Source: an uncultured Bacillota bacterium
Lineage (GTDB): Bacteria > Bacillota_I > Bacilli_A > RF39 > UBA660
Length of the DNA stretch: 64,000 nucleotides
Direction: 5' to 3'
NCBI GenBank assembly: GCA_900317975.1
Contig: ONIZ01000002.1
Span: 6,473-70,472, forward strand
Shown: in pieces, positions 1 through 39,800 of the stretch
Layout: every line of letters begins with the position of its first letter
Numbering within the stretch: the first letter of the stretch is position 1
Translations under genes and position numbers: made by a program
Notes under the pieces: generated by a model
What the model saw: only the letters and a program-made list of their open reading frames with translations
What the model was told of the DNA's origin: nothing
Database searches by the model: none

Positions 1-328
1 TTTTAAACGTACCAACATATGGTAGATGAGCAACACATTCATTTAATAAAGTTTCTTTACAAAAAAGTTCAGCATTAAATACTATACTTGTTAATTTTTT
101 TCTTTCTTCTTCAGTTATATCATTAATTTGATTTATTATATCTCTTTCTTCTAATACATTTACATCCCAATATTTTCCATCATACCATATTTTATTTTCA
201 TATTGAGAGGCGTCTAATTTTGGCTTTTCAGTATCTATTTTAGACATAGCCTTATTTGGCAATCTTCTCCATTCTCGTTTATACTCTTTTGATTTATGTT
301 TATCTTTAAAATTAAAAGATAGTCCCAT
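1..328 (-). CDS. hypothetical protein, N-terminal part only (ORF runs off the left edge)
   Basis: Reverse-strand ATG at 328 (MGLSFNFKDKHKSKEYKREWRRLPNK...) stays open to position 1. It is absent from the ORF track because no stop lies in the window. Confidence 0.45.
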   Translation of the reverse strand, partial: MGLSFNFKDKHKSKEYKREWRRLPNKAMSKIDTEKPKLDASQYENKIWYDGKYWDVNVLEERDIINQINDITEEERKKLTSIVFNAELFCKETLLNECVAHLPYVGTFK

Positions 329-363
329 AATATAAATTTTAACATCAATAGCCTATATTTAAT

Positions 364-376
364 CCCCTGTAAAGGG
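364..376 (+). repeat. dispersed GC-rich motif copy (cccctgtaaaggg), intergenic
   Basis: Sits at the centre of the 11-bp palindrome 348-358/383-393. Confidence 0.8.
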
Positions 377-403
377 AATGTCATATAGGCTATCGACAAT
401 TAC

Positions 404-1036
404 TTATTCAGCAACAGCATCGTTTAGTTCTTTTGCTTTAGCAGGAACTTCAGCATGAACTTCAGGAATTACCTTAATAAAAGGATCGTTATAACTAATG
501 TTATTATCTACAGTTCCATGAATTGCTGTAACAGGTACAATTTTAAAGCTCATAAAGCAAATAGGATGTTCTTTAATAGGTACATTATTTTCATCCTTTG
601 CAGTTCCAGAAAGAATTGTAGCTGTAAGATAATTTTTCTCTTTAGGTTCTTTACTTGAAACAATTTTTTCTTCTCTGAGTAAATAAGAAATAATGTTTTC
701 GTATGTTAAAGCACTAGGAGGAGTAATTTGAGTTCCTCTTGCAATATCTGATTCATCGATTATAACTTGTTGTCCTATTTTCCATTCTGCAGGAATAGCG
801 TCCGAATTAATTTTAACAAGAACTGCAATATCAACTGCACGAGTTTTTACTTTAGGATTGTTTAAAGTTATAAGAAAATCATACATACGAACTTGTCGTA
901 CAACTGCTACAATTGCATAATGCTTTGGAAGATTAATACAATTTGTAACATCTTCATAATACTGTGCTGGAATCTCATGAATTGATTGAGGAAGAGATAA
1001 TGTATATCTCTCAACTCGACTTTGAAGAGTAATCAT
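404..1036 (-). CDS. hypothetical protein (210 aa)
   Basis: Long ORF with no competing ORF of comparable quality. The overlapping + ORF 455-658 is low complexity. Confidence 0.7.
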   Translation of the reverse strand: MITLQSRVERYTLSLPQSIHEIPAQYYEDVTNCINLPKHYAIVAVVRQVRMYDFLITLNNPKVKTRAVDIAVLVKINSDAIPAEWKIGQQVIIDESDIARGTQITPPSALTYENIISYLLREEKIVSSKEPKEKNYLTATILSGTAKDENNVPIKEHPICFMSFKIVPVTAIHGTVDNNISYNDPFIKVIPEVHAEVPAKAKELNDAVAE

Positions 1037-1084
1037 AAATTTGTTTGTTTAATTGTTAATATTGATATTAACTACAAATGTAGT

Positions 1085-1522
1085 TTAAAGAAGCATTACT
1101 AAAACTTTTTTACCATGAACGTCATCTTTTATATAATATTTATCATATAGATAAATTTTAGGATAAGCTTTTTTAACAATTCCTCTAGCAGTTAATTCAT
1201 TTAATGCTCTAATATAAGTTGGTCTACTAATTTTATATTTAATACAAAATATTTTTTCAAATTTAGCATTACTTTCAATTTCACCACCATTTTTATTTAA
1301 TTCTATAAATAAATTCTCACCATGTTTAGTAAGATTTAATAAATGAGCATAAATTTGTAATATATCTTGTTCTTCATTAGTCTTTTTAAAGACTGCAATA
1401 ACATCTTTTTCTTTTCCCCATAATTTAGTTTTATTAGCAACAACAAACTCATCGTCTGTTTTATCTAATAAAAAATCATCTTGAGGAGCTATAAATTCAT
1501 TAAAAACTGTTTTAAGTTCCAT
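1085..1522 (-). CDS. putative winged-helix/HTH DNA-binding regulator (145 aa)
   Basis: The segment ISRPTYIRALNELTARGIVKK looks like a helix-turn-helix recognition unit. The gene sits next to a divergent promoter region. Confidence 0.5.
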   Translation of the reverse strand: MELKTVFNEFIAPQDDFLLDKTDDEFVVANKTKLWGKEKDVIAVFKKTNEEQDILQIYAHLLNLTKHGENLFIELNKNGGEIESNAKFEKIFCIKYKISRPTYIRALNELTARGIVKKAYPKIYLYDKYYIKDDVHGKKVLVMLL

Positions 1523-1583
1523 AGTTGCAAATACATTATTTGTTCTACTTTAGTCTATTTTTTGTACATTTGTACAACCAGCA

Positions 1584-1615
1584 CAAAGATACAAAAAAAA
1601 TTCCATATATGCAAA
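1584..1615 (-). promoter_or_regulatory. Bacteroidota-type promoter for 1085-1522
   Basis: On the reverse strand: TTTG (1612-1615 rc), a 20-nt spacer, then TATCTTTG (1584-1591 rc). This matches TTTG-N(19-21)-TAnnTTTG. Confidence 0.6.
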
Positions 1616-1631
1616 TTTTTTTGCAAAATTA

Positions 1632-1663
1632 TTTGCAAAAATCGATTTTTTTTACTATCTTTG
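1632..1663 (+). promoter_or_regulatory. Bacteroidota-type promoter firing rightward into non-coding DNA
   Basis: TTTG 1632-1635, a 20-nt spacer, then TATCTTTG 1656-1663. There is no ORF downstream until 2729. Confidence 0.6.
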
Positions 1664-1668
1664 TAGGC

Positions 1669-2074
1669 ATATAAAAAGTTACATATATTATATAATGTAC
1701 GCGCGTGAGTATGTCATATTATATAAAATTTTATATGTTCTTATAAATTTTGAATATAATAGCATTAATGATATTAAAGAAAGCCGAGCCAAAGATTAAA
1801 CAGAAACTCGTTTATCTGCGGACGGTATATATGCTTCGGCATATATCGAAGAAGTCCATGTTATGTTTCATAGCAATGTCAGTGACTATCTGGTGGTAGG
1901 GGTGTGGGTAGGGTTACGGTATCGTATCCCGCAAATAATATTATTAATGCTATAAAATATAATAATCGTTGTGATAACGATACTTTTTGATGTCATTTTG
2001 AGTGAATAGTTTTCGGTGTAGATTTATGTATGTTTAGATAGGAATTGTTGTGAAACAGTTCCTATCATTTTTTT
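1669..2074 (+). ncRNA. candidate structured non-coding RNA (about 400 nt), family not recognised
   Basis: Bounded by the promoter at 1632-1663 and the intrinsic terminator at 2038-2074. It has an 8-bp hairpin capped by C(UUCG)G at 1827-1846, an 11-bp closing helix 1759-1769/1943-1953, and a helix 1817-1821/1929-1933. There is no ORF. Confidence 0.45.
2038..2074 (+). terminator. intrinsic terminator
   Basis: Hairpin ATAGGAATTG...CAGTTCCTAT (2038-2065) followed by a run of 7 T (2068-2074). Confidence 0.7.
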
Positions 2075-2230
2075 ATGTTACTCATAATATTAATAAAAGC
2101 TAAAGGATAGTAGAACGTATATACTACATATACGGGCATTAAATAAAATTAAAGTAATACCCCCGTTAGTGTTATTAATAAAAATATTTTTGTAAATAAA
2201 TAAATAGGTGAGAAAGTTTTATGATACAAT

Positions 2231-2243
2231 CACTCTACAGGGG
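2231..2243 (-). repeat. dispersed GC-rich motif copy (rc cccctgtagagtg), non-coding
   Basis: Shares the extended flank atatttaatcccctgta with the copy at 364. Confidence 0.8.
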
Positions 2244-2383
2244 ATTAAATATGAGATATAACTAAAATTGTTGATATTATTATAATTATTGTATTTAAAT
2301 AAGTTATAAAGAATGTTTAATGGATTATTATAATATATAAAATAATATATTAAATATATGAAGAGGTTTAATAATGTTATTAA

Positions 2384-2491
2384 GACGATTTAGGAAAAGA
2401 TTATAGTGAAAATTATATGGAAAATTATATTGAAAATTATGATAAAGATTGTGGTGAAGATTTTAATGAAGATTTAGATGTAGATAGTAGG
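2384..2491. repeat. tandem array of nine degenerate 12-nt units (consensus about GAAGATTWTRRT)
   Basis: Units read in register: gacgatttagga, aaagattatagt, gaaaattatatg, gaaaattatatt, gaaaattatgat, aaagattgtggt, gaagattttaat, gaagatttagat, gtagatagtagg. Confidence 0.7.
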
Positions 2492-2582
2492 ATAAAAAAT
2501 TTTGTCGATTAGCGAGAAGAGGAGGGTATTACCACAAAGGGTGGGGGTGTGATAAGTGAATGTCAATACCCCCGTCATATCG

Positions 2583-2614
2583 AACCTCGTGAGAAAACAG
2601 GTCAGATTTCGAAT
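2583..2614 (+). promoter_or_regulatory. conserved 32-nt upstream box, copy 1 (upstream of 2729-3316)
   Basis: aacctcgtgagaaaacaggtcagatttcgaat matches the box at 3811-3842 at 28 of 32 positions. Confidence 0.5.
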
Positions 2615-2728
2615 GAATAAATGTTTTTCAAATATTATTCATTTATTACTGAAGTAAGTCATCTGACTACGCTTGCTTTAGCACATTATCCAATAAGTTA
2701 GTCACTCAATACAAATTCTGTTACAACT

Positions 2729-3316
2729 ATGGCACAGCCAAAAGCTAATGCAGTTGAGCAAGTTCCTGCACAAGTCGTTAACGCAGTTGAAACTGCAAGT
2801 GTTAATCTTCTTAGCTTCTCTGAAGCAGTCGATGCAACGATTGCTGATGGTGGCAAAGTAACAAAGGGTATTCATATTACTCGTGCGACTTATAGTCGTC
2901 GAGAAGATGGACACGAGATTGTTACTTTGACAGGCGATATACCTGTTGAGCGTTATGTTGCTGATGAGACAAATCCTGATGTATTTGTCAAATCAATGTC
3001 CAAGTCATTTGTTGTGTCATTATTCTCATTAGTGGGAATGATGTCCAACATGAAGGACGCACAAGTGCTCGCAGGTCGTATCTCAAAGCGACCAATGTTG
3101 ATAGAGAGTTTGCTACCAGGTAGTATTATTACAGTAGTTCAACGTGATGTCAAAGGTAATGTTCCGTTTATGAACTACTTTAGTAACAAGGAGAATACTA
3201 TCGATCATGATAGTATTGTTACCGACGTAGTCAAACTTGAAGTATCTGATTTTGCTCGTTCTATGATGGATGAGTACAAAAAGATGCTTGCATCTGCATT
3301 GATGGGAGACTTGTAG
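2729..3316 (+). CDS. hypothetical protein, paralog A of a duplicated gene (195 aa)
   Basis: Long ORF that is visibly less A+T-rich than its surroundings. It is strongly similar to 3906-4460 (ITRATYS.RE.DGHE.VTLT...PDVFVKS.SK.FVVSLFSLVG.MS.MKDAQVLAGRISKRP). Confidence 0.8.
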   Translation: MAQPKANAVEQVPAQVVNAVETASVNLLSFSEAVDATIADGGKVTKGIHITRATYSRREDGHEIVTLTGDIPVERYVADETNPDVFVKSMSKSFVVSLFSLVGMMSNMKDAQVLAGRISKRPMLIESLLPGSIITVVQRDVKGNVPFMNYFSNKENTIDHDSIVTDVVKLEVSDFARSMMDEYKKMLASALMGDL

Positions 3317-3324
3317 TTGATGAT

Positions 3325-3362
3325 AGATTTGCAGGTGATGATTGTTCATTGCCTGCAAATCT
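3325..3362 (+). terminator. hairpin after paralog A (terminator-like)
   Basis: Perfect 11-bp stem AGATTTGCAGG/CCTGCAAATCT with a 16-nt loop. The T tract after it is weak. Confidence 0.45.
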
Positions 3363-3432
3363 TTGCATTGTTATAGTTGTAGTATGATGTTGAGTAGAAA
3401 TTGCAATTATTAACCAATTAAATTATACAATT

Positions 3433-3753
3433 ATGATCGCACTTGCTCCAAAACATTCAGAAGCAATTCAAATTCTTGCTTCGCTTCCTAAAAAAGAAGT
3501 TTCTGATGTTCGTCTTGCTTACAATGGTGAAGTAGTAGCCATTGTTGATGAATCAACAATTCGTGCTCTTCAAGTTGCTATTCATGATGGTCTTACAGAT
3601 TATCGTAGATGGCTTATACTTGAAGATTACGATGATGATGAAAATGGTCATCATACAAACTTTCTTCATTTTAGAGAAGATGGTAGAATATCTGATGAGT
3701 TTAAAACAGATTTCTTTAGATTTCTAGACGATCTTGCATACAAGATCTTCTAG
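3433..3753 (+). CDS. hypothetical acidic protein (106 aa)
   Basis: ORF lying between the two paralogs, with an Asp/Glu-rich centre (LEDYDDDENGHH). Confidence 0.65.
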   Translation: MIALAPKHSEAIQILASLPKKEVSDVRLAYNGEVVAIVDESTIRALQVAIHDGLTDYRRWLILEDYDDDENGHHTNFLHFREDGRISDEFKTDFFRFLDDLAYKIF

Positions 3754-3761
3754 TTGATTAT

Positions 3762-3805
3762 GGTTCTAATATAGCTAGTATTCATTTACTAGTTATATTA
3801 GAACC
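3762..3805 (+). terminator. long hairpin (19-bp stem, loop TTCATT)
   Basis: GGTTCTAATATAGCTAGTA pairs with TACTAGTTATATTAGAACC with one G-T wobble. It lies immediately downstream of the stop at 3753. Confidence 0.45.
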
Positions 3806-3810
3806 TCAAA

Positions 3811-3842
3811 AACCTCGTGAGAATACAGGAAAGAATTCGAAT
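3811..3842 (+). promoter_or_regulatory. conserved 32-nt upstream box, copy 2 (upstream of 3906-4460)
   Basis: aacctcgtgagaatacaggaaagaattcgaat matches the box at 2583-2614 at 28 of 32 positions. Confidence 0.5.
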
Positions 3843-3905
3843 CTATTAAGCGTTTAAGCGTTTAACAGTTCTATTAATTATTTAACAATTTAAATTGTAA
3901 AAACA

Positions 3906-4460
3906 ATGAACGATGAAAAAGCAAAGGAAGTTGTAAGTCAGCCACAACTATTGACCTTTACTGAGGCAATTACTGCCACAAAAGCTGACAATGCATCTGA
4001 AGTAAAGAATCTTCAGATTACTCGTGCTACATATTCAAAGCGTGAGGAAGATGGTCATGAAGTAGTGACATTAACAACAAGTGGTCTTGTTGACAGATAT
4101 ATTGCGGATAACGATAATCCCGATGTATTTGTTAAGAGCAAAAGCAAAACTTTTGTAGTATCTTTGTTTAGTCTTGTAGGTGCTATGAGTCAAATGAAAG
4201 ATGCTCAAGTTCTTGCTGGACGTATTTCTAAACGTCCTGTTCTTGTTGAATCTCTTCTTCCTGGTTCTACTATTACTGTACTTCAACGTGAAGTTAAGGC
4301 TAATGTTCCTTTCATGAATTATTTCAGTGGAAAGGAAAACACTATTGACCATGATAGTGTTGTAACAGATATTGCTGATATTAAGCTTGGAGAGTTTGCT
4401 CTTAGTACTCTTGATGCTTATAAGCAAAATCTTGCTGCTGCTCTTATGGGCGATTTGTAA
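3906..4460 (+). CDS. hypothetical protein, paralog B of a duplicated gene (184 aa)
   Basis: Roughly three quarters identical to 2729-3316 over the C-terminal 150 aa, judged by eye. Confidence 0.8.
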   Translation: MNDEKAKEVVSQPQLLTFTEAITATKADNASEVKNLQITRATYSKREEDGHEVVTLTTSGLVDRYIADNDNPDVFVKSKSKTFVVSLFSLVGAMSQMKDAQVLAGRISKRPVLVESLLPGSTITVLQREVKANVPFMNYFSGKENTIDHDSVVTDIADIKLGEFALSTLDAYKQNLAAALMGDL

Positions 4461-4467
4461 AAGAGTT

Positions 4468-4500
4468 GCTGCTGTATTGTGAAATACGGCAGCGATTCTT
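4468..4500 (+). terminator. intrinsic terminator-like hairpin
   Basis: GCTGCTGTATT-GTGA-AATACGGCAGC (one G-T wobble) followed by gattcttatt. Confidence 0.55.
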
Positions 4501-4603
4501 ATTGTAACAGAATTTTCAGGTACATTATAATACCATAAGTGTTATAGTGTACCATTTAATGCAGCTAATTAACAGTCGTAAGCCTGTGTAAATGCAGAAC
4601 GAA

Positions 4604-4765
4604 ATGAAAATTCTTGTTGATAGTGATATTATTATTAAAGAAGTTGATAAATGTGATGATGGAGCAGCTCCTGCTCTCCATTCTAATCATTTTACTAATA
4701 ATATTACTAATCCATTTCAAATAATTAATACAAGAATTAAACAAATGAAACTTATATACATTTAG
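4604..4765 (+). CDS. possible small ORF (53 aa) in an otherwise non-coding region
   Basis: ATG 4604 to TAG 4763-4765 (MKILVDSDIIIKEVDKCDDGAAPALHSNHF...). There is no other support. Confidence 0.2.
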   Translation: MKILVDSDIIIKEVDKCDDGAAPALHSNHFTNNITNPFQIINTRIKQMKLIYI

Positions 4766-5457
4766 TGTAATTAAATATATATTACTAATGTTATATTATC
4801 AATTTTAATTTCCGCACTATAAAGCGCGCCTATTGATATGACAATAATAATGTTGGTAATATAAATACTATCATTTAATATGATATAATTGTAAATCATT
4901 TTGCTATTTAATACATCGATTGACGATGTCTTCGCTGATGATACGCAATATATCATTTAGATGATAGCAATTCATGAAATCCTACTTGGAGACGAGAAAC
5001 GGCTCATATTGAGTATCGTAAAGTTAATCCTTGATAGGTTGCATCAAGAGATACAGCAAAATATATCAGACAGTTTGTTGGTTTATAATGTCTTGATTAT
5101 TTTGTTGTATTTCTTGAGATAGTTTATGTTGAGCCTAGAGCACATAATGCTGCTATAGGTAGAATTTTTCCCATAGTACGTGATTTAGAAACCAACTATG
5201 TTAGCAGTCAGAATAACTGTTATTACAGTAAATCGTCATGCTGTGATAAATATCATATAATGTCAAAAATATGATATGATGACAACGATGCTAAGCAAAA
5301 AGCTGGTAACGATAAGAAAGAGATAGGTGAGAAGAGTGCACTCGCATCTAGACTATCTCTTTATCTTAATGTAGCCAATCGATATGATTGAGAGTCCAAA
5401 GCCTCTATAAATACAGATGGAGATAATATTATTAATAACAAATAAATTCACGCAATC

Positions 5458-5913
5458 ATGAAAAAGTATTTTAAAGAATTTATAGGAACATTAGTTCTTA
5501 TAATTTGTTTTATTATTTTAACAATAACGTTTATTGCTATAGGAAAATATTATAACGATACAATACTTATCGTTATAGGTATAACAATTAATGTTTTAAC
5601 TATAATTATGTTAATTGTTATAAATATTCAAGAAATAAACGAACGTGATAAAATTATACATAATCTAAATGAAAAAATAACTGAAGAACATACTTCAGTT
5701 ATAATGACTAGAATGATGTGTAATCAAGCTTTATCAGATGCTCTAATTTTAAGAAAAATAATTGACCAAAAAAATAAAAAAATAGAAAAATATGAAAAAC
5801 ATATAAATGAATTAATTCATAAAATTAATTGTATAAATAATGAAGCAAAAGAGCTTCAAGATTTATGCAATAGATATGAAACTCAATATGGTAAATTGAC
5901 AGATCAAGAATAA
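5458..5913 (+). CDS. membrane-anchored coiled-coil protein (151 aa)
   Basis: Two hydrophobic N-terminal segments (LVLIICFIILTITFIAIG; ILIVIGITINVLTIIMLIVI) followed by heptad-like charged sequence. Confidence 0.7.
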   Translation: MKKYFKEFIGTLVLIICFIILTITFIAIGKYYNDTILIVIGITINVLTIIMLIVINIQEINERDKIIHNLNEKITEEHTSVIMTRMMCNQALSDALILRKIIDQKNKKIEKYEKHINELIHKINCINNEAKELQDLCNRYETQYGKLTDQE

Positions 5914-5920
5914 ATTTGTT

Positions 5921-5933
5921 CCCCTGTAGAGGG
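5921..5933 (+). repeat. dispersed GC-rich motif copy (cccctgtagaggg), intergenic
   Basis: Forms the hairpin TGTTCCC/GGGAACA at 5918-5937, immediately after the stop of 5458-5913. Confidence 0.85.
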
Positions 5934-6152
5934 AACATATCTATCAATTGCTAATATTGATACTGTTATAGATAATAATAAATATAATATTGATATAGTT
6001 AATATATTATAACTTGTATATATATTATATATATTATATATAATAATTATATTATATATTTATTTATTATTATTTATAATAATAAATATAACGCACGTGC
6101 GTGCGCGTATAGTGTTTTGTAGAACATATATAATAATAAAAAATATCGTTTT

Positions 6153-6431
6153 ATGTATAGTTTATCAACTATTATAGAAAGTCAAACATGGGATAATCTT
6201 GAAGATATGCTTGAAGAACTTCATGCTAATGAAAGAACAATTCCTTGTGGAATCATTCTTGATAAGAATGGAAAAGTTGAATTTACCAATACTTTTGAAT
6301 TACTTAAAGCAGTTCAAGAACGTATTGAATTAAAACAACAAACTATACGTTATTCTTTATTTAATATCGATTTCGAAACAAATAAAGTAATAGCGACTAT
6401 TAAAGACTATGTATTAAGTTATAAAGGTTGA
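6153..6431 (+). CDS. hypothetical protein (92 aa)
   Basis: Clean ORF on the + strand. Confidence 0.6.
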   Translation: MYSLSTIIESQTWDNLEDMLEELHANERTIPCGIILDKNGKVEFTNTFELLKAVQERIELKQQTIRYSLFNIDFETNKVIATIKDYVLSYKG

Positions 6432-6660
6432 AATCCCTTTGCAAGAGTAACTTCCCGATATACTTTGTATATTTTCGCCGCTCTTGCATAAAATCATAAT
6501 CTTGTTATACAACCTTGACGAGGTGATTATGCTTTTACTAATAGTATAACACATGAGATTGTGTGAGAAGGAGCAGATGAAAGAATTAATCTTTTGTCTG
6601 CTCTTTATATTAAATTCTTACACTATCTTATAATATTAATCTTTAAAATCTCACACAATT

Positions 6661-6855
6661 ATGACACAAACAGCATCAAAACCATTACCTATTAATTGTG
6701 CAATAGGTACATGTGTAAAAAGAATTAAAAAAGTAGTTTATTTCTCAGAACAAGGAATAAATCTATTTAAAACTATTTCTTTTCCTACAGTTTTAGCAGC
6801 ACAAAATTATGTTAAACTATTAACAAAGAAAAAGGAATATGCAAAATCATGGTAA
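6661..6855 (+). CDS. hypothetical protein (64 aa)
   Basis: Clean ORF on the + strand. Confidence 0.5.
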   Translation: MTQTASKPLPINCAIGTCVKRIKKVVYFSEQGINLFKTISFPTVLAAQNYVKLLTKKKEYAKSW

Positions 6856-6894
6856 ACTATTATGTTGTATAATATAATAAAATCAATATAATGG

Positions 6895-7043
6895 ATTTGC
6901 AGATATAATAAATAGTAATATAACATTTAATATTAACAATGGGTTATGTTATATTGTTATCTAAATCACAATACATTAAAATTATTACAAGTTTCGTATA
7001 TTTTTAATGTTCTACCTATTGTTATATCTGCAAATTCATTTTT
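6895..7043 (+). terminator. long nested hairpin with T tract
   Basis: 14-bp arms ATTTGCAGATATAA (6895-6908) and TTATATCTGCAAAT (7022-7035) enclose a second 10-bp inverted repeat. They are followed by tcattttt. Confidence 0.45.
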
Positions 7044-7065
7044 ATTGAAATATTTTGCTGAAAAA

Positions 7066-7097
7066 TTTGGAATTATCAAAAATATTTTGTATATTTG
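7066..7097 (+). promoter_or_regulatory. Bacteroidota-type promoter for 7147-7692
   Basis: TTTG 7066-7069, a 20-nt spacer, then TATATTTG 7090-7097. The architecture is near-identical to the promoters at 18071 and 25197. Confidence 0.65.
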
Positions 7098-7146
7098 TGT
7101 ACAAAATAAAAAACAATATTGTTTTACTAATTAAATTATTAAATCT

Positions 7147-7692
7147 ATGAGTTATGGTTATCAAAGACCTCATTATAACAATCGAGGTCGCAATTACGGT
7201 CGTAATTATGGTCGTCGTCCATTTGTTCCTGCCACTAAAGACAAAGAAGAAACTGTAAAGTATCCTGGACTTCCACCTTTTGTACAAAATTTAGATGCAC
7301 ATTTAGTTCGTCTTGTACGAATTGTGCAAGGTAATGATGATATTAGGAGATATATATCTCTTGGTATCATTAATAGACTTATTAAATCTAAAGCAATTAC
7401 TGAAGGTGGAAACTATATACGTTTCCGTTGGGATAAATTTACTGTTTGCAGTAAAGGTATTAATACCGATTATCGGTATAATGATCCTATCTTTCTTCAA
7501 TCGTTTGTTGGATCATTTACAATTTTGACCAATGTTGCGTCTAAAGCATTAGAAAATTTTGTCAAAATTGAATTTGATCAACCAGCAGAAAAAGTAATTG
7601 ACGGAAGTGATCCTGACGGTGTTGATAAAGAGCTTATTGAAAAGCAACTCAACACAGATGAAAACCTTGGAGTTTTTGAGGAACAGCAATAA
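7147..7692 (+). CDS. hypothetical protein with Arg/Gly/Tyr-rich N-terminus (181 aa)
   Basis: N-terminus reads NNRGRNYGRNYGRRP, and a promoter lies 50 nt upstream. Confidence 0.75.
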   Translation: MSYGYQRPHYNNRGRNYGRNYGRRPFVPATKDKEETVKYPGLPPFVQNLDAHLVRLVRIVQGNDDIRRYISLGIINRLIKSKAITEGGNYIRFRWDKFTVCSKGINTDYRYNDPIFLQSFVGSFTILTNVASKALENFVKIEFDQPAEKVIDGSDPDGVDKELIEKQLNTDENLGVFEEQQ

Positions 7693-7706
7693 ATAAAAAT
7701 TTATAT

Positions 7707-7765
7707 AGTAATAAGAATACTACGGCTTTATAGCAATAAAGTTAGGAAAATGTATTCTTATTACT
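7707..7765 (+). terminator. hairpin with 13-bp stem (terminator-like)
   Basis: AGTAATAAGAATA pairs with TATTCTTATTACT and is followed by attttaaaaa. Confidence 0.4.
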
Positions 7766-7786
7766 ATTTTAAAAATTGATTTTATT

Positions 7787-7972
7787 ATGAAAAAGAATGG
7801 TCAATTCGATAAGAAAGAATTAGAAGTTATGCCTTCTAAAATTAAAGAAGCTATTTTAGAACTTAAAAAGATTCGTTATGTTTCTCCTAAACAATATGGT
7901 GTAGCAATTGCTAATTCTCCACGTCATGCATCACTTAAAGGTAAACGTATGGTTTATCTTAATAAACACTAA
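7787..7972 (+). CDS. hypothetical protein (61 aa)
   Basis: Clean ORF on the + strand. Confidence 0.55.
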   Translation: MKKNGQFDKKELEVMPSKIKEAILELKKIRYVSPKQYGVAIANSPRHASLKGKRMVYLNKH

Positions 7973-7978
7973 AATGTT

Positions 7979-8143
7979 ATGTATGTCGATGAAAATGGTA
8001 AAATTCATCTTCAATCTGCTAAAACTTTAAAAGATTTAGGAGAATACGCTTTAAATGATTATGACGACGTAGCACATGAATTAGAAGAAACATTAAATAA
8101 AGGAGATGAAGATGAAGAAATGGCTGAAATGTTAAATTATTAA
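7979..8143 (+). CDS. small acidic hypothetical protein (54 aa)
   Basis: Read by hand: MYVDENGKIHLQSAKTLKDLGEYALNDYDDVAHELEETLNKGDEDEEMAEMLNY. It is tightly packed with its neighbours and is preferred over the antisense track ORF 8019-8237. Confidence 0.5.
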   Translation: MYVDENGKIHLQSAKTLKDLGEYALNDYDDVAHELEETLNKGDEDEEMAEMLNY

Positions 8144-8148
8144 TAATT

Positions 8149-8310
8149 ATGACAACAGCTAAACTAAAAAGAGTTGTAAGTACATTTATGCAATGTCTTT
8201 CTTGTAAAGATTGTGTATTTGTAAATACTTGTATCATTTTAGAACAAACTACTTCTCATAGTTTATGTTATCATTTACAAAATAATGATGACATTGAAAC
8301 AGGTGAATAA
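8149..8310 (+). CDS. small Cys-rich hypothetical protein (53 aa)
   Basis: Read by hand: MTTAKLKRVVSTFMQCLSCKDCVFVNTCIILEQTTSHSLCYHLQNNDDIETGE. Confidence 0.45.
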   Translation: MTTAKLKRVVSTFMQCLSCKDCVFVNTCIILEQTTSHSLCYHLQNNDDIETGE

Positions 8311-8322
8311 TTAAATTAAATT

Positions 8323-8547
8323 ATGAAAAAAATATTAGAAGCTATTAAGAATTGGTGGTTATATCAAGTTCTTAAAAAAGAAAGAACTGTTGAAACTACT
8401 CGTTACATTAAAGGCTATAAAAATAGTCGTCCATTTTATATGAAGAAAATATATAAATGTGTTTATGTAGGTAACAAATGTATCAGCAGTATCAGAACTG
8501 ATCAAAAATTTATAAGTAAAAAAGAATATTATGATCAGTTTAGTTAA
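8323..8547 (+). CDS. hypothetical protein (74 aa)
   Basis: Clean ORF on the + strand. Confidence 0.55.
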   Translation: MKKILEAIKNWWLYQVLKKERTVETTRYIKGYKNSRPFYMKKIYKCVYVGNKCISSIRTDQKFISKKEYYDQFS

Positions 8548-8553
8548 ATAAAT

Positions 8554-8629
8554 AATCAATAGTATAATTGTTTACCAAATTATAGTACGTTTGATTCTCA
8601 AGAGCATTTTAACAATTATACTATTGATT
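8554..8629 (+). repeat. perfect 19-bp inverted repeat (hairpin) upstream of tRNA-Leu
   Basis: AATCAATAGTATAATTGTT (8554-8572) pairs with AACAATTATACTATTGATT (8611-8629), followed by ttttat. Confidence 0.7.
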
Positions 8630-8638
8630 TTTATACAT

Positions 8639-8712
8639 AAATCTATAGTTTTATTATATTTGCCATACCGATATATACCTCCTTCTAAATAATATGATAA
8701 AACTATAGATTT
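8639..8712 (+). repeat. perfect 16-bp inverted repeat ending 2 nt before tRNA-Leu
   Basis: AAATCTATAGTTTTAT (8639-8654) pairs with ATAAAACTATAGATTT (8697-8712). Confidence 0.7.
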
Positions 8713-8714
8713 TT

Positions 8715-8800
8715 GCCGTGATGGTGGAATAGGTAGACACGAAAGACTTAAAATCTTTTGACCAGAAATGGTTGTGTGGGTTCAAGTCCCACTCGCGGTA
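8715..8800 (+). tRNA. tRNA-Leu (anticodon UAA), type II with long variable arm, no encoded CCA
   Basis: Hand-folded. Acceptor GCCGTGA/TCGCGGT, D arm GTG..CAC, anticodon stem AAAGA/TCTTT with loop CTTAAAA. Variable arm ACCA-GAAA-TGGT, T arm GTGGG-TTCAAGT-CCCAC. Confidence 0.85.
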
Positions 8801-8832
8801 CTAATATTAATAATCTTAAATTTAGTAAAATT

Positions 8833-9030
8833 ATGACACTACTTGAAAATAATTATGGTAAACTTAGATGTCCATATTGTGATTCGGTAATGAAAATTGA
8901 ATCTTCTGATATTAATACAAATTATGATAATGAATTATATATTGTTTGTCCAGTATGTGATTCAAATATATGGGTAACTGATAATATTGTTGTTAAAAGA
9001 ATAAAAGATAATATATTATATCATAAATAA
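8833..9030 (+). CDS. zinc-ribbon protein (65 aa)
   Basis: CPYC...CPVC pairs. The start was trimmed to ATG 8833 because the track ORF start (8758) lies inside the tRNA. Confidence 0.6.
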   Translation: MTLLENNYGKLRCPYCDSVMKIESSDINTNYDNELYIVCPVCDSNIWVTDNIVVKRIKDNILYHK

Positions 9031-9048
9031 TTTAAATTTGATAAAATT

Positions 9049-9195
9049 ATGTTTAAAACTAAAACTATTAAAATTATATTCACAATAGATGAATTTAAAA
9101 ATCTTGTAGAGATTTTACCTACTATTTCTATATATTACAATGATAAATGTATAACATTTCGTTGGATAATATTTGAAATAAATGTATATTATTAA
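9049..9195 (+). CDS. mini-protein family member 1 (48 aa)
   Basis: Read by hand: ...ILPTISIYYNDKCITFRWIIFEINVYY. It shares the pattern LP(T/S)I-x6-KCI-x-F/G-x-W...FE with 13969-14124 and 14155-14289. Confidence 0.45.
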   Translation: MFKTKTIKIIFTIDEFKNLVEILPTISIYYNDKCITFRWIIFEINVYY

Positions 9196-9213
9196 TCTTA
9201 AATTAATAAAATT

Positions 9214-9429
9214 ATGTCTTCTGTTATTTTTAATAAACTTATTAATCGTTGTAGATTTAAAAACATTAACGGTTTAATTTGTAAACCTATTAGTTTTAAT
9301 GAATCTAAAAATGAAATAATTGTTGAAATTACTAATCCAAATACTAATAATACTTGGAGAGAAATTTGGAATGATTTAAGTGCTGCAATTACTGCATTTC
9401 AAATTGGTGATTATTTATTTATTGATTAA
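9214..9429 (+). CDS. hypothetical protein (71 aa)
   Basis: Clean ORF on the + strand. Confidence 0.55.
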   Translation: MSSVIFNKLINRCRFKNINGLICKPISFNESKNEIIVEITNPNTNNTWREIWNDLSAAITAFQIGDYLFID

Positions 9430-9441
9430 ATTATTAAAATT

Positions 9442-9625
9442 ATGACATTAAAAGAATATAAAAATAATATAGGTAGAAAAGTTACCTATATTCCCCTTTA
9501 AAGGGTGTGATCCTAAACTCTATGAAGAAGGAGTTATTACAAGTACAAACAATAAATATGCATTTGTACGTTATAATTCAGATATTAATTCTAAAGCAAC
9601 TAATCCTAAAGATTTAAAATTATAA
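9442..9625 (+). CDS. small protein interrupted by TAA at 9499-9501; intact only with a +1 shift at CUU-U (or a pseudogene)
   Basis: Frame 0 reads MTLKEYKNNIGRKVTYIPL-stop. Frame +1 continues KGCDPKLYEEGVITSTNNKYAFVRYNSDINSKATNPKDLKL to the stop at 9623-9625. Confidence 0.4.
9493..9505. repeat. dispersed GC-rich motif variant (cccctttaaaggg, fully palindromic)
   Basis: Contains the in-frame TAA that interrupts 9442-9625. Confidence 0.6.
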
Positions 9626-9656
9626 ATAGTATAATTAAATAAAAATTATATAAATT

Positions 9657-9968
9657 ATGACTTCATATTCAGATATTAAAAATTTAGAATCTGGATTTTA
9701 TAAAATATGTGATGCTTCGATAGTTAGATTTGGAGGTAAAATAGGATTTAAAATAATAAATATTAATGATGATAATAGTTGTATATTTGTACAACTACAT
9801 CCATTGAAAGAAAAAAGAACTCCAGGTGAAGAAGTATCATCAAAAGATATAAATGAAGGATTTAATGTTTGTTTATGTTTTGACAATATAAAAAGTATTG
9901 ATAGCTTTATTGGATGTCTAAATGAAGCTAAACAATATTTAAATATTCGTAAAAACAATAACAAATAA
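9657..9968 (+). CDS. hypothetical protein (103 aa)
   Basis: Clean ORF on the + strand. Confidence 0.6.
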   Translation: MTSYSDIKNLESGFYKICDASIVRFGGKIGFKIININDDNSCIFVQLHPLKEKRTPGEEVSSKDINEGFNVCLCFDNIKSIDSFIGCLNEAKQYLNIRKNNNK

Positions 9969-9978
9969 TTTAATAATT

Positions 9979-10050
9979 GCTGCCATCGTATAACGGTTAG
10001 TACTCAAGATTTTCATTCTTGCAATCCGAGTTCGATTCTCGGTGGCAGTA
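9979..10050 (+). tRNA. tRNA-Glu (anticodon UUC), no encoded CCA
   Basis: Hand-folded. Acceptor GCTGCCA/TGGCAGT (G1-U72), D stem GTAT/GTAC, anticodon stem CAAGA/TCTTG with loop TTTTCAT, T arm CCGAG-TTCGATT-CTCGG. Confidence 0.8.
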
Positions 10051-10054
10051 CAAA

Positions 10055-10071
10055 GGATGCTTATAGCATCC
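10055..10071 (+). terminator. short hairpin just after tRNA-Glu
   Basis: GGATGC-TTATA-GCATCC followed by gtttg. Confidence 0.4.
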
Positions 10072-10154
10072 GTTTGCAAATCAAACATATATTTGAATTG
10101 ACTACTCTTGCTTGTGAAAGTAGGAGTAGTTTTTATCTTAAAATTAATAATATT

Positions 10155-10298
10155 ATGGAAAGAGAAATAGGAACACGATTTTGGGTTAATGATAAACTAT
10201 ATGAAATAGTTGAACAAAAGAATGAAAGTTGTAAAAAATGTTGTTTTTATAATGATTGTACTATTGAATTAATAAAAAAAACGTGTAGGTTTTTGTAA
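10155..10298 (+). CDS. small Cys-rich hypothetical protein (47 aa)
   Basis: Internal ATG of track ORF 10074-10298. The upstream part of that ORF covers hairpins that follow the tRNA. Confidence 0.4.
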   Translation: MEREIGTRFWVNDKLYEIVEQKNESCKKCCFYNDCTIELIKKTCRFL

Positions 10299-10370
10299 TG
10301 CTATATTTAGAACTGACAAAAAGAATATAATAGTCAAATGCGTAATGTAATAAGGAAAATATTAATTTTA

Positions 10371-10388
10371 AAAGCTATTTTTAGCTTT
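10371..10388. repeat. AAAGCTA-TTTT-TAGCTTT hairpin, copy 1
   Basis: The same hairpin recurs at 25089, 30643 (rc) and 57854. 26 nt are identical to the reverse complement of the 30643 copy. Confidence 0.7.
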
Positions 10389-10514
10389 ATAATAAATTTT
10401 TATTCGACTTGCTTACATTTATACATATTTGCATAAACTTGTCTTATATGGCTCATATTGAATCGATTTGGTACAATATTGTACAACATTGTATAACAAT
10501 AAAATAATACAATT

Positions 10515-12286: not shown

Positions 12287-13739
12287 TATTGTCCCTTTAC
12301 GGGGGAACAATAATAATTCAATAACATTCACAAAAGGTCAAGAAATAGCAGTTAAAGAAATACTTAACTTCCTTACTGAACCTTTTGATAAAGCTAAATT
12401 TATAGCTGGATTAATAGGTGCAGGTGGAGTAGGTAAAACATTTGTTATAAAATATATATTAGCAAATTGTAATTATTCTAAAAGTGTAATAACTTGTTGT
12501 AGTACAACTCATAAAGCTTGTAGAGTATTCTATGAAGCTTTAAATGGACTTTATCAAGTATATACAATTCAAAGTACATTTGGTTTTAGAATGGATTTAA
12601 AACTTGAAGATTTTAATCCAAATAATCCACAATTTGCTCCAAAAGCTACTCCTAAAATAGATGATACTAAAATTTTAATTGTTGATGAAGCAAGTATGAT
12701 ACCTGCAAGTTTAGTTGGATATATTAGAAAAGTTTGTATTGAAAAAGAAATTAAAATTTTATTTGTTGGTGATAACGATCAATTACCTCCAGCTAAACAA
12801 TTAAAAAGTACAGCATTTGATATTTGTTTTAAAAAGTTTGTTTTAAATGAAATTGTAAGACAAGGTGTAAAAAATCCTATTTTAGGACTATTAGATATGT
12901 TAAGATATGATATTGAAAATAATACTAATAGATTTATAAGATATTTAACAACTAATATAGGAACAATGAATTATAATGAAAATAATGAAGGTTATTGTAT
13001 ATTAAATAGACAAGAATTTACTCAAGCTGTAGTAAATAAATTTAGTAATCCAGATTATTCTAAAAATATTGATTTATATAGAATGATAACTTATACAAAT
13101 GATGCTGTACAATCATGGAATGATTTTATTAGAAATATTATAGTAATTGATTCAGAAAAAAATATATTAACAAAACATGATTTATTAATGGCATATGAAA
13201 CTATTGTAGATGATTATCAAAGTCCTATAATAATTAATAGTGAAGAATATATTGTAAATGAAATAGTAAATTATATAGATAATACTTATAAATTTAAAGG
13301 ATTTAATGTACGTCTTCAAGCAATACATGGTGGAAAAATAACTACACCAATGTTTATTATAGATCATAGAGATAGATATACAATGTTAAAATATCATGAA
13401 ATTGTAAGTTCTCTTATAAAAGATGCTAAATCTTCTAGTATAGGTGTTCGTTCTGCAAAATGGAAAAAGTATTTTGATTTTAAACGTAAATATCTTTTAC
13501 TTAAAAATGTTAAAAATGCTTTAGGAGAATTACTTTATGATAGAGATTTAGATTATGGTTTTGCTATAACCTCTCATAAATCTCAAGGAAGTACTTATGG
13601 TTGTGTATTTGTTGATTGTATGGATATGATTTATGATAAACGTGGATTACCTTATACATTAACAAGTGATTTACTTAAACGACTTTATGTTGCTTGTAGT
13701 AGAGCAAAAACAGAATTAATACTTTGTTATGGAAGATAA
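12270..13739 (+). CDS. SF1 DNA helicase (RecD/Dda/Pif1-like)
   Basis: Walker A GAGGVGKTF, Walker B ILIVDEASM, GDNDQLPP, and the C-terminal SHKSQGSTY and YVACSRAK motifs. Confidence 0.85.
   Translation: MEMQNSIVPLRGNNNNSITFTKGQEIAVKEILNFLTEPFDKAKFIAGLIGAGGVGKTFVIKYILANCNYSKSVITCCSTTHKACRVFYEALNGLYQVYTIQSTFGFRMDLKLEDFNPNNPQFAPKATPKIDDTKILIVDEASMIPASLVGYIRKVCIEKEIKILFVGDNDQLPPAKQLKSTAFDICFKKFVLNEIVRQGVKNPILGLLDMLRYDIENNTNRFIRYLTTNIGTMNYNENNEGYCILNRQEFTQAVVNKFSNPDYSKNIDLYRMITYTNDAVQSWNDFIRNIIVIDSEKNILTKHDLLMAYETIVDDYQSPIIINSEEYIVNEIVNYIDNTYKFKGFNVRLQAIHGGKITTPMFIIDHRDRYTMLKYHEIVSSLIKDAKSSSIGVRSAKWKKYFDFKRKYLLLKNVKNALGELLYDRDLDYGFAITSHKSQGSTYGCVFVDCMDMIYDKRGLPYTLTSDLLKRLYVACSRAKTELILCYGR
12293..12305 (-). 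repeat. dispersed GC-rich motif copy (rc cccccgtaaaggg), in the helicase gene
   Basis: Translated as VPLRGN. Confidence 0.65.
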
Positions 13740-23457: not shown

Positions 23458-24687
23458 ATGATAGAATCAAAAAATGAACATAAACTTCTATATAGAAGAA
23501 ACAATAAAGGTCAACCTTGCTATTGGTGGGGAGAACCAGATAAAATTGATAAAGTAATAAGATTGCATCATGGTATAGTAGGAAAAACTGATATTATTGA
23601 TATGATTGTTACTAATAGAGATGTTGAAAAAGAATATCAATCTATGATTAATGAAAAACGTAAAGCTGGTTATAAATATATTTGGGAACTTAAAGACAAT
23701 AATGATACCCCTGTAGAGGGAACATTGCTACAATATCTGAATACTTATCTTCCTTACGATAGAACTACTTCTGATGGAATGATGCTTTCTATGTTAGCTA
23801 AAACTTATGATAATGAAAATAATAAAGTATTTAATAAATGTCCTATATATTACGGACAATGGAAGATTAATGGTTTAAGATGTTCTATTAGTGCTCATTA
23901 TAATCAAGGAGATTTATTTAAACCTATAAGTTTAAGATTTCAAAGTCGTGAAGGAACTGTATGGAATAGTTTATCTGATTTAGAGAGCTATCTATTAAGT
24001 ATTCTTCCTGCAAAATTATTAAATGATATGCTTGAAGAAGAATATATTCTTGATGGTGAAATTTATTTACCTGGTCATACAGTTAACGAAATAAATCATT
24101 TTGTAAAAGATCCTAAATGTAAAGAAAATAAACTTCTTCAATATTGGTGTTATGATATTGCTATTCAAGATTGTATACAAAGTACTAGAGAAAATATTAG
24201 AATAAAATATTTAGCAAATTTTGTTCCGTTTATTAAAACTAAACAAATGCACTATGCTAATCAACATAGATTAATTGCTCTTCCAAGTATTGACATTTGT
24301 AATCATGAACAAGCAAGAGTTGCTAGAGATTTAGCTATTGAAAATGGTTTTGAAGGATTAATTCTTCGTAATCCTGATAAAGAATATCAATATGGCGCAA
24401 GAAATATGGCTATGATTAAATATAAACGTAGTACTGATGGAAAATTTATTATAGTTGATATTAAACCAGAAGGAATTAAACGACCAGATATACCTTTATT
24501 TGTTCTTAAAAATGATATAAATGATTCATTATTTGAAGTACATGTAGGAGGAAAATTTGATTATCAAAAATTTATATTAAAAAATAAAAATTTATATATA
24601 GGAAAATTTATGTTTGTTGAATATGGAGAGAGAAGTGGTGTAGAACAAGTTCCTTTCCATGTTAAAGAAACATATATAATCGATTAA
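23458..24687 (+). CDS. ATP-dependent DNA ligase
   Basis: Motif I WKINGLR (KxNG instead of KxDG), motif III LDGEIY, motif IV EGLILRNP, motif V MIKYKR. Confidence 0.7.
   Translation: MIESKNEHKLLYRRNNKGQPCYWWGEPDKIDKVIRLHHGIVGKTDIIDMIVTNRDVEKEYQSMINEKRKAGYKYIWELKDNNDTPVEGTLLQYLNTYLPYDRTTSDGMMLSMLAKTYDNENNKVFNKCPIYYGQWKINGLRCSISAHYNQGDLFKPISLRFQSREGTVWNSLSDLESYLLSILPAKLLNDMLEEEYILDGEIYLPGHTVNEINHFVKDPKCKENKLLQYWCYDIAIQDCIQSTRENIRIKYLANFVPFIKTKQMHYANQHRLIALPSIDICNHEQARVARDLAIENGFEGLILRNPDKEYQYGARNMAMIKYKRSTDGKFIIVDIKPEGIKRPDIPLFVLKNDINDSLFEVHVGGKFDYQKFILKNKNLYIGKFMFVEYGERSGVEQVPFHVKETYIID
23708..23720 (+). repeat. dispersed GC-rich motif copy (cccctgtagaggg), in the ligase gene
   Basis: Translated as TPVEGT. 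Confidence 0.85.
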
Positions 24688-27350: not shown

Positions 27351-27362
27351 CCCTCTACAGGG
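27351..27362 (-). repeat. dispersed GC-rich motif copy (rc ccctgtagaggg), intergenic
   Basis: Forms the hairpin TTTCCCT-CTAC-AGGGAAA at 27348-27365, between 27074-27340 and 27381-28154. Confidence 0.8.
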
Positions 27363-36800: not shown

Positions 36801-39800
36801 AAAATATACTTTTTTCACTTGAATTTGTATCTTTTGAAATAGTAGTATTTAAATTTAATTCTTTTATAAATGTATGATGTTGTCTAATAAATCTTTCTAT
36901 AAATGTATTTCCAGATTTTTCTCTAATATCTATATCATGCAATTGAGAGCTTAATTCTTCTACAAAACTATAATTAGGATTAATTGTAAATCCATAATCA
37001 TTATTAGATGTATAAAGAAAATCATTTGTTATAATTCTAGAAATTCCACCAAATTTAAAATTATCTCCTTCAACAATAAATGCATATTTAACTAAATCTG
37101 CAGCAGCTAATTTAATTAAAGGATTTTTACTAAATGCAGCTTTTCTAAAAGCAGAATATAAAATTTCAACATCATTACCAAATTTAACTTTCAGGCTATT
37201 TATGTTTACCCCGTAGAGGGAATAACTGCCACGAGAAATATAATTTGTTTCAATATAATTAAATATTTCAGCATTATTTCTAAAATGTAATTTAATCCAA
37301 TCTACTTTTTGTGCAGGAGTTAATTTACTAAAAGCTTTAATTTCTTCTTTTGTAGGTTTTTCTATATTATTTACTTTAATATCCCTATATCCTTGTACAC
37401 CAAATCCAAAAATTCTCATTTTTTCTCTATTCCAATAATTTGCATGAGGTGTAACAGTATTAGCATCGTTTTCTGTATTTTTTTCAGAAATATCTAAATT
37501 TTCAATATCCGGAATAAATCTATTATATTTATCTACAATTAAAGGTGTAACAAGAGTTTTATTTTCATTAAATACACTGCTTACAATATATTTTTTATAT
37601 TCTTTGTATTCATCATTTGTTAATCTTCTACCTAATTTATGTTCTATTAATTCACATAAACTAAATGTTTTATTATCATTAAATAGTTCTACTAATCCAT
37701 AATAACCTAAACTAAATTCAGGACTTTCTAAGTCAAATAATTGACTATTTATTACAACAGATGGAATTGTAGTATACTTTAAAAAACTTGCTAAATATTC
37801 ATAAGAACTATCTTTTTCTCTTAATCCACTACGTTCAAATAAACCTGGATACAAAGATTGTAAAAATGGAATATCTTTATCATTTGTAATTTCAAATATA
37901 GCATCATTATTTGCATTAAATCCATAATTATATATATTTATTAAAGCTTCTTTAGTATCATGAATAGTTTGTTTTGCACCAAATTTATCAGGATTACAAC
38001 ATTGAACTAAATTTTCTATATTTTTTGTTATACCATTTAATTGAGAATAAATAGAAAGAACTTGAAATTGATGTAATAAAGTATCATTTCCATTTAATGC
38101 ATTATATAAATCTTTAACGTTTATTATATTTTCATCAGAAAGTTTAAAAAATTCTTTTCCCTTTTTTATAACTGTTTTTAAATCAGAATAATTACTAACT
38201 TCATTATATCCAGCTTCATTTAATATTTGAACCATAGTTTCAACTATAGCATTATTATTATCATTTATATAAATAGATTTATTATTATTAAAATTTTTAA
38301 CTAATTTAGTAATAGCAGGTTGAGCCAAAAATCCTATAGCTGTGCTATAATCTATTCCTAAGTCTATTAATGTTTTAAATATTCCAAATGTGTCTTCAGT
38401 TTCATTTATAATAGCACCTTCTTTTACAGCATCGAGAATATGAGCAGTTGTTTCAGAAGAATATACTGTCATTAAACGACCTAAAATATTGCGATTTGTA
38501 GTTTTACCATTATGTGAATGCCATCCTAGTTCATCATGAGCAACAATATATTCATCATCATTACTTTCTCTATATTCGTTATATAAGCTTTTTAAATTAT
38601 CTTTTTTATCTTTTAAAGTTTCTCCTTCAAATATATCTTCATAAGATTTTTTATCACTATTATATATTTGCTGATTTAAATCATAAGCTACTAAAATAGG
38701 AGTTTTTAATTTTCCATGTATTTTATTAGAAACAGATAAAAATGTATCACGTTGTACAGATAGTGCTTTTAATCTAGCTCCCATAATAGCATCTTCAAAA
38801 AATTGAATTTGTGTTAAAGTATTTGCAACAGCTTGATTATGTTTTGATTTTATTGCTTCAAGTTTAGAGATAGTTTTATTAACAGCAGTTATATCATCAA
38901 AATTAGAACGTGACATATTTTCTTCAAATGAAGAATCATTTTTAAGTATCTCTAAAAAATTATCTATTATATTATTATTTCTTGCTTCTCTAATTTGTTG
39001 TTCTAATATAGGTAATTTTATAAATTCGTCATATTTTATAAGATTATATTCATTTGCTAAATCGTTTATAGCAGATAATAATGCAGCGTGATAAGATTCT
39101 TTTTCAGATTCTATTCTATTCCAATTATCAGATATATTATTTAATTCATTTGTAATAGCTTTTCTATCATTTATTATATCTATTAGTTCTTGTATAGAAC
39201 TTTTAATTTGAGGATTAATTTTAGGACTTTTTAAAAATATTTTAAATTGTTCAATATAATGTTTATCTCTTATTTCTAAATCACCATAAGCATCATTTAT
39301 TTTTTTCATATTTCTGCTAATCATTTCTTTTATATTAGCAGGTAATGATTGAATTAATTCATTTTGTTGTTTATAATTATTTTTAAAATAATCAGTATTT
39401 TGTAATTTAGCTTGTATATTATTAATATCTTTTAAAATATTAGATATATTATTTCTTTTTTCTTCATTTAAAAGTTTATTATCTTTGTTTAATGTATCTT
39501 GTAATGTTTTTATTCTACCATTTTTAATTAGTTGTTTTATATAAGCTATATATCTATTTTCTCTATCTAATTGAGTATCTTTATTATTTTCATTTATTTT
39601 TTCAAAATTTTTAGTTTTTTCATTATATCTAAAATTATGACATATACCATAAATAGAGTCAACATCAAAGTCAGAACCTGTTTGAGTAACCCATTCATTA
39701 GGAACAAATATTGTACTACCATAAATATCATCGACAAAACCAACAACTTTCATTATTGCAACAGATTGTTTTCCTTCAGTAGGAATACGATAGCCAATAT

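Follow-up and report, generated by a model that had tools for sequence, protein, structure and literature searches.

How should a small gene be read when a stop codon cuts it in two and the remainder of its protein continues, uninterrupted, in the next frame? Such a gene was found in the stretch of DNA analyzed here, breaking at CCC_CUU_UAA_A. The original prediction took this site for a candidate programmed +1 frameshift with the logic of prfB, the gene for RF2, placed in a copy of a palindromic motif; it named a motif-disrupted pseudogene, a genuine frameshift mutation, and an assembly error as alternatives. These readings differ in what they lead one to expect of the same gene in related phages, and much of what follows concerns those relatives.

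The window, by which we mean the whole stretch of 64,000 nucleotides, is AT rich (about 24% GC), has nucleotide matches of 72 to 80% to the helicase and ligase regions of crAssphage, and carries giant minus-strand open reading frames (ORFs) of 4744, 2249, and 1512 codons. Judged by these features, it comes from a crAss-like phage; the phage is from cattle rumen, and the broken gene lies in its early-gene block. There, small plus-strand genes are tightly packed, and two tRNA genes lie nearby (Table 1). UUA makes up 67% of the Leu codons in the long ORFs. A 90-amino-acid ORF with a TTG start (8758-9030), called as a gene in public assemblies, overlaps the tRNA-Leu gene. Right after the tRNA-Glu gene, at 10057-10148, there is an Rfam match to the Prevotella-2 sRNA that stays below threshold (27.7 bits where the gathering score is 72.1; E = 0.37). 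This match is probably due to chance; a Prevotella-type host would suit the rumen origin.

On re-reading the sequence, the layout of the gene in two frames, frame 0 up to the TAA and the +1 frame up to a stop at 9623-9625, proved exact to the base as originally described. Translated from 9500, the +1 frame gives KGCDPKLYEEGVITSTNNKYAFVRYNSDINSKATNPKDLKL. We looked in this frame for a start codon of the 3′ part's own and found none, which rules out a 3′ part that is started independently. In tblastn comparisons with the window, every homologue aligned as two segments, the first in frame 1 to 9498 and the second in frame 2 from about 9479-9494 onward. At the break the window reads ATT CCC C TTT AAA GGG TGT, the closest orthologue (L065) reads ATT CCA TTT AAA GGA TGT, and a homologue from an unrelated phage (L001) reads ATA CCC TTC AAA GGG TGT. 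Removing one C from the window yields YIPFKGCDPKLYEEG, identical to the sister orthologue across the junction, and deleting one C from the CCCC run restores the peptide Y-I-P-F-K-G-C, where close homologues read Y-I/T-P-F-K/E-G-C. At residue 19, 73% of 117 family members have Phe, and Leu does not figure among the five commonest residues there. The lesion is exactly one added base relative to the orthologues.

Table 1. Positions, in the window, of the broken gene, its surroundings, and the repeated hairpin motif
Feature	Position	Strand	Remark
5′ part of gene: ATG, 19 sense codons (MTLKEYKNNIGRKVTYIPL), and premature TAA	9442..9501	+	Homologues align in frame 1 to 9498
Start codon ATG of the gene	9442-9444		
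In-frame TAA	9499-9501		
3′ part in +1 frame: KGCDPK...DLKL, 41 codons	9500..9625	+	Homologues align in frame 2 to 9622
CCCC run with one extra base	9493..9496	+	Orthologue CCA TTT; other homologues CCC/CCT TTY
Perfect 12-nt palindrome CCCTTTAAAGGG, codons for Pro-Phe-Lys-Gly	9494..9505	.	Weak 4-bp hairpin
400-bp accessory segment with 71-aa gene (9214-9429) and broken gene	9222..9621	+	Missing from L072 and L073
Downstream 103-aa neighbor gene	9657..9968	+	Syntenic anchor for the same phage and sister lineages
tRNA-Leu(UAA) and tRNA-Glu(UUC), among small early genes	8715-8801 and 9979-10051		
Repeated hairpin motif	365-376, 5922-5933, 12293-12304, 23709-23720		
Repeated hairpin motif	27351-27362, 37209-37220, 55571-55582, 56178-56189		

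When the two parts are joined, the 60-amino-acid product matches PHROG 18065 end to end (E = 2.1e-17; residues 1-58 of 60 on profile positions 1-58 of 63); no Pfam family matched it. About 190 metagenomic homologues of 55 to 65 amino acids cover the joined product over 100% of its length, all as uninterrupted ORFs; a search with the PHROG 18065 profile found 191 homologues. Of the homologue loci, 21 are on IMG/VR contigs and 27 on JGI contigs, and no homologue from IMG/VR, from the JGI metagenomes, or from the protein collection shows a split at the same point. The other members of PHROG 18065 that we examined are single ORFs of about 60 codons; the window copy is not, and would need a +1 shift at 9493-9499 to be read as one. 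Full-length homologues are also found in very different phages, including Bacillus phage SP-15 and several Mycobacterium and Gordonia phages. The PHROG 18065 proteins of SP-15, Mycobacterium phage Phrappuccino (gp100), and Gordonia phage VanLee align from end to end with the joined product and have in common with it the motifs Y-x-P-F, GVITS, and FVRYG..SKAT; what sets the window copy apart is the extra C that splits it, together with Y6 and N45, two residues unique in the family. Damaged copies of other kinds occur elsewhere in the family. One in an unrelated phage (L017, about 9850-10114) lacks its N-terminal half, which a deletion between short repeats removed, one on a contig of about 1x coverage (L031, 47-226) has an in-frame stop, and one (P0104) is truncated at the C terminus to 43 amino acids.

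An AlphaFold2 model of the joined product, built with a 117-sequence alignment, has a pLDDT of 91.9 and shows an N-terminal helix followed by a β-barrel of the SH3/Tudor/KOW-like kind. In this model the break falls in the loop between β1 (residues 13-16) and β2 (residues 28-35), and neither fragment could fold by itself. The best structural matches of the model are the predicted VanLee and ValentiniPuff proteins. Beyond these, the fold search returned only generic SH3/Tudor/KOW-like barrels, with weak E-values of 0.07 or worse against the PDB, and we therefore assign the joined product no function. The profile match, the homologues, and the model all indicate that the two pieces are one gene for one small domain, in agreement with the original reading of the fused product as one continuous small domain.

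The same phage was found in independent public assemblies by exact look-up of two neighboring proteins. The CCCC run is identical in six contigs (L050 to L054 and L059) from five runs or samples: ERR2027895 (as assembled by MEGAHIT and by Logan), ERZ919306, ERZ27279856, STEW19 sample SAMEA5383960, and ERR2027900. These contigs are 99.7 to 100% identical to the window, two of them differing by two or three single-nucleotide changes elsewhere. Every same-phage contig that spans the site has CCCC, and it is the only allele seen in this phage genotype across the five runs or samples. One further scaffold (L055, 597 bp) joins the window at 9540, inside the gene, and its first 120 bases have no match in the window; it is probably either a low-coverage chimera or a rearrangement with the approximately 25 kb of the genome that lie outside the window.

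Whether the gene is a single ORF in related phages had been proposed as a check, and the relatives answer it. Through the 90%-identity cluster of the 103-amino-acid neighbor protein we reached a sister lineage (L065 to L071) whose flanks are 95 to 97% identical to the window and which has an intact 60-amino-acid ORF (MTLEECKNNIGRKVTYIPFKGCDPKLYEEG...) in the same slot, between the genes for 71 and 103 amino acids. In a second sister lineage (L061/L062; contigs of 88 to 90 kb), with flanks 88 to 95% identical, the orthologue is intact as well. Since both sister lineages carry the intact gene in this slot, the extra C is derived. The first homologues collected (L001 to L049) match the window in this gene alone, with no synteny around it, and IMG/VR gave no useful relatives of the two neighbor genes; it took exact look-up of the neighbor proteins and of their clusters to reach the syntenic relatives.

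Two more strains, L072 and L073, are 94 to 97% identical to the window and precisely lack 9222-9621, so that a 48-amino-acid gene directly precedes the 103-amino-acid gene. This segment is a presence/absence cassette of the early accessory region, and the gene is dispensable, because phages without the segment that holds it exist. Other changes were seen at this locus. In L066 (2554-2964) the TAA stop of the 71-amino-acid gene has become CAA, and since the two genes are in the same frame, it is fused with the intact 60-amino-acid gene into a 136-amino-acid ORF. In L061 (8001-8183), compared with window 9442-9625 and L065 2822-3004, codons 15 to 30 or so are strongly diverged and both ends are about 90% identical; the middle third of the L061/L062 protein reads DAKDRGLQET where the window has KGCDPKLYEE. 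Presumably this intragenic mosaicism arose by recombination with another allele of the family. In L065 (3001-3004) the 60-amino-acid gene overlaps the 103-amino-acid gene by ATGA, which suggests that the sister lineage couples the translation of the two; in the window a spacer of 31 nt (9623-9657) separates them. Intact, absent, fused, and mosaic forms thus occur within one phage species complex, and the sequences portray an accessory gene on the move, subject to gain, loss, recombination, and breakage.

We consider it very probable that a recent frameshift inactivated this copy of the small dispensable accessory gene, which makes the locus a young pseudogene of PHROG 18065 with its SH3-like barrel. 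Among the original alternatives it is therefore the genuine frameshift mutation that we favor: a real, derived insertion of one C, seen against intact sister orthologues. One C would have been gained in the C run across codons Pro18 and Phe19, most likely by replication slippage. Ribosomes would therefore read CCC CUU UAA and stop after 19 residues, ahead of barrel formation. We infer a lack of function, the allele being either null or strongly hypomorphic. It is possible that spontaneous +1 slippage still yields a small percentage of full-length protein, given that CCC_C and CUU_UAA are intrinsically shift-prone; a slip of tRNA-Pro on CCC_C would give the ancestral YIPFKGC, and a slip of tRNA-Leu on CUU_U at the UAA would give YIPLKGC.

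The residues of the broken copy bear on its age and use. Among 117 sequences, two residues are unique to the window, Y6 (C6Y) and N45 (G45N, which takes two nucleotide changes); position 45 is Gly in 111 of the 117. C6Y, G45N, and E4K are confined to the window lineage, and the total of about 17 codon differences is too small for dN/dS. From C6Y and G45N, few changes as they are, there are hints of relaxed constraint on the window copy. Asn often replaces Gly at positive-phi positions, and for this reason G45N could be tolerated. The window copy has no secondary stops or indels, and the 41 downstream codons are still open and encode protein that is 90% identical to the sister orthologue; it follows that either the lesion is young or the frame is still in use. 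At the least, the frameshift allele is not strongly deleterious.

As a young pseudogene the locus has ready company. Frameshift pseudogenes of small accessory ("moron-like") phage genes likewise arise from a single-base indel in a short homopolymer, recognized against intact orthologues, in small genes of hypervariable early regions that are present, absent, or mosaic among close relatives. Here the indel is seen against L065 and L061 in the same syntenic slot, and the lesion is real in six contigs. We find no material difference from such cases; the only oddity is how closely the indel resembles known +1 recoding sites.

That resemblance needs to be taken seriously. If CCC_CUU_UAA_A were a programmed or selectively maintained +1 frameshift, a useful fraction of ribosomes would make the full 60-amino-acid protein, either by a slip of tRNA-Pro on CCC_C or by a slip of tRNA-Leu from CUU to UUU with UAA in the A site. 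The protein would then be expressed at a reduced or regulated level, or the insertion would be a "savior indel" for which frameshifting compensates. The slippery context is present as it was described, and CCC_C permits perfect +1 re-pairing of tRNA-Pro. CCC is rare in the phage (4 of 436 Pro codons, or 0.9%), and among 17,736 codons this is the one place where CCC_C stands in frame; CUU_U before a stop reproduces the core of the prfB site. Downstream, the frame is still intact, and CCCC stands as the sole allele in the five runs or samples. There are precedents as well, in Listeria phages, where CCC adjoining a stop codon or pseudoknot serves for +1 shifts (PMC5009743), and in shifting of the prfB type at CUU_UGA in Bacteroidia, at about 7% without help from a Shine-Dalgarno (SD) sequence (PMC10798248). 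Given the latter, appreciable full-length expression is possible.

Nevertheless, we regard such recoding as unlikely. In both sister lineages the syntenic orthologue is a single ORF, as are all other homologues, so the shift lacks conservation. The carriers are near-clonal (at least 99.7% identical), so the persistence of the allele has no evolutionary weight. An SD-like element 3 nt upstream is absent; the sequence before the shift codon is GUUACCUAUAUU, and the nearest AGGU is 22 nt away. Local folding of 9470-9560 is not significant (z = -1.65), the palindrome would form a hairpin of only -4.3 kcal/mol, and an Rfam scan of 8500-10500 returned the two tRNAs only, with nothing at the break site. 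The stop is UAA, which both release factors recognize, and UAA-A is the ordinary stop context of this phage, found at 13 of 33 long ORFs. Finally, the gene is one that the phage can do without, and its 19-amino-acid zero-frame product has no evident role. The programmed +1 frameshift first proposed thus finds no support in the orthologues, the upstream sequence, the folding, or the stop context.

Comparison with known recoding systems points the same way. As in prfB (CUU_UGA_C), a P-site CUU is followed by U and an A-site stop, and the +1 frame encodes the remainder of the protein. However, the stop here is UAA-A rather than the RF2-specific UGA-C; there is no SD sequence 3 nt upstream, although SD sequences are dispensable in some Bacteroidia; and no autoregulatory logic is apparent for a shift that is not conserved among orthologues. 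Listeria phages PSA, A118, and A500 (CCC_UGA; ACA_CCC_UCC with a pseudoknot) are likewise low-GC phages with a rare CCC, and CCC_C re-pairing is common to both. In those phages CCC stands directly before the stop codon or pseudoknot, whereas in the window it precedes a sense CUU, with the stop one codon later. Shifting there lengthens a structural protein at its C terminus and has been conserved from phage to phage; the window site, in contrast, has no significant structure, an unconserved shift, and a 19-amino-acid stub as its zero-frame product. The analogy with the take-off site of phage T4 gene 60, a stop in a stem-loop, fares no better. A stop codon does lie within a potential hairpin, but the window would skip 1 nt, with no 50-nt gap and no matched take-off and landing codons, and the hairpin has a stem of just 4 bp in a region whose folding is not significant.

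A narrower version of recoding, somewhat less probable still, is a maintained hypomorphic indel of the savior type. In an SD-blind Bacteroidia host, CCC_CUU_UAA_A would then supply the accessory protein at a set low level. If true, the crAss-like phage would possess a natural +1 recoding site free of RNA structure, a minimal SD-independent site that would be testable in Bacteroidia.

The palindrome at the break raises a different possibility. The window contains a real repeated motif: CCCN6GGG occurs in 9 copies, against 0.32 expected. The repeated hairpin has the approximate consensus tgttcCCCTGTAGAGGGaaca, which is GC rich in a genome of 24% GC. Copies are found after a gene end (5922), between genes (365 and 27351), at a gene junction (12293), and in some cases inside ORFs; for the copy at 5922 there is a conserved counterpart at 4251 of the sister phage L061/L062. 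The motif may be a terminator or regulatory hairpin. One can envision that a copy was inserted at the break or converted there, or that selection for a regulatory or terminator hairpin at this site cost the phage the gene; a factor that binds or cuts the motif, if any, would then act on CCCCTTTAAAGGG. Besides the over-representation of the motif, the string ttcCCCT..AGGG, its four Cs included, is common to the site and the true copies, and elsewhere the phage hardly uses CCC and GGG codons.

In our judgment the palindrome in the broken gene is no true copy of this motif. The true motif has a GTAG or GTAA loop and extended arms, TGTT(C)CCCT and AGGGAACA. What the site in the broken gene has in common with it is limited to the left flank and the CCCT..AGGG core; its loop is TTAA and its right flank tgtg, the GTAG loop and the right arm (aaca) being missing, and its folding energy is half that of the true copies (-4.3 versus -8.7 to -9.5 kcal/mol). 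What was called a palindromic motif copy is a perfect palindrome, found exactly once in the window, and at best a poor copy of the motif that the window does have. The palindrome is better seen as a by-product of the conserved P-F-K-G peptide, because its codons, CCN TTY AAR GGN, are self-complementary by construction. At the same position the sister L065 has the non-palindromic CCATTTAAAGGA, which encodes the same peptide, and CCC TTY AAA GGG stands at this place in unrelated phages that lack the motif (L001 and L025). There is just one base extra relative to the orthologues and hence no inserted element; for this reason, and because the loop and right arm are missing, we reject insertion or conversion of the motif. 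The extra C does not lengthen the palindrome, the 3′ neighbor being T, so that quasi-palindrome template switching is not indicated either. A link between the break and the hairpin motif is thus very improbable, and the notion of a motif-disrupted gene is not supported.

That the extra C is an error of sequencing, assembly, or consensus in a gene that is truly intact is the least probable reading and effectively excluded: the C run does adjoin T and A runs, a classic site of indel errors, but the same CCCC came from several assemblers (MEGAHIT k127 and k141, scaffolds, and Logan) in six contigs from five runs or samples, a sister lineage from the same projects assembles with the gene intact, and the A/T runs in the long ORFs of the window (about 520 of at least 5 bases and about 195 of at least 6, the 4744-codon ORF among those that carry them) are free of any frame break.

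The young pseudogene that remains is of an ordinary and already known kind. As found, it matters little by itself. It does carry a caution, in that a one-base indel in a run of codons such as CCC-TTT-AAA can mimic recoding signals, here CCC_C, a CUU_stop, and a palindrome all at once. It is the comparison with orthologues that decides between recoding and a pseudogene, and we would advise annotating this locus as a frameshifted pseudogene rather than as a recoded gene. What the locus does offer is a clear-cut case of recent pseudogene formation, set in the hypervariable accessory region of this crAss-like phage from the rumen.
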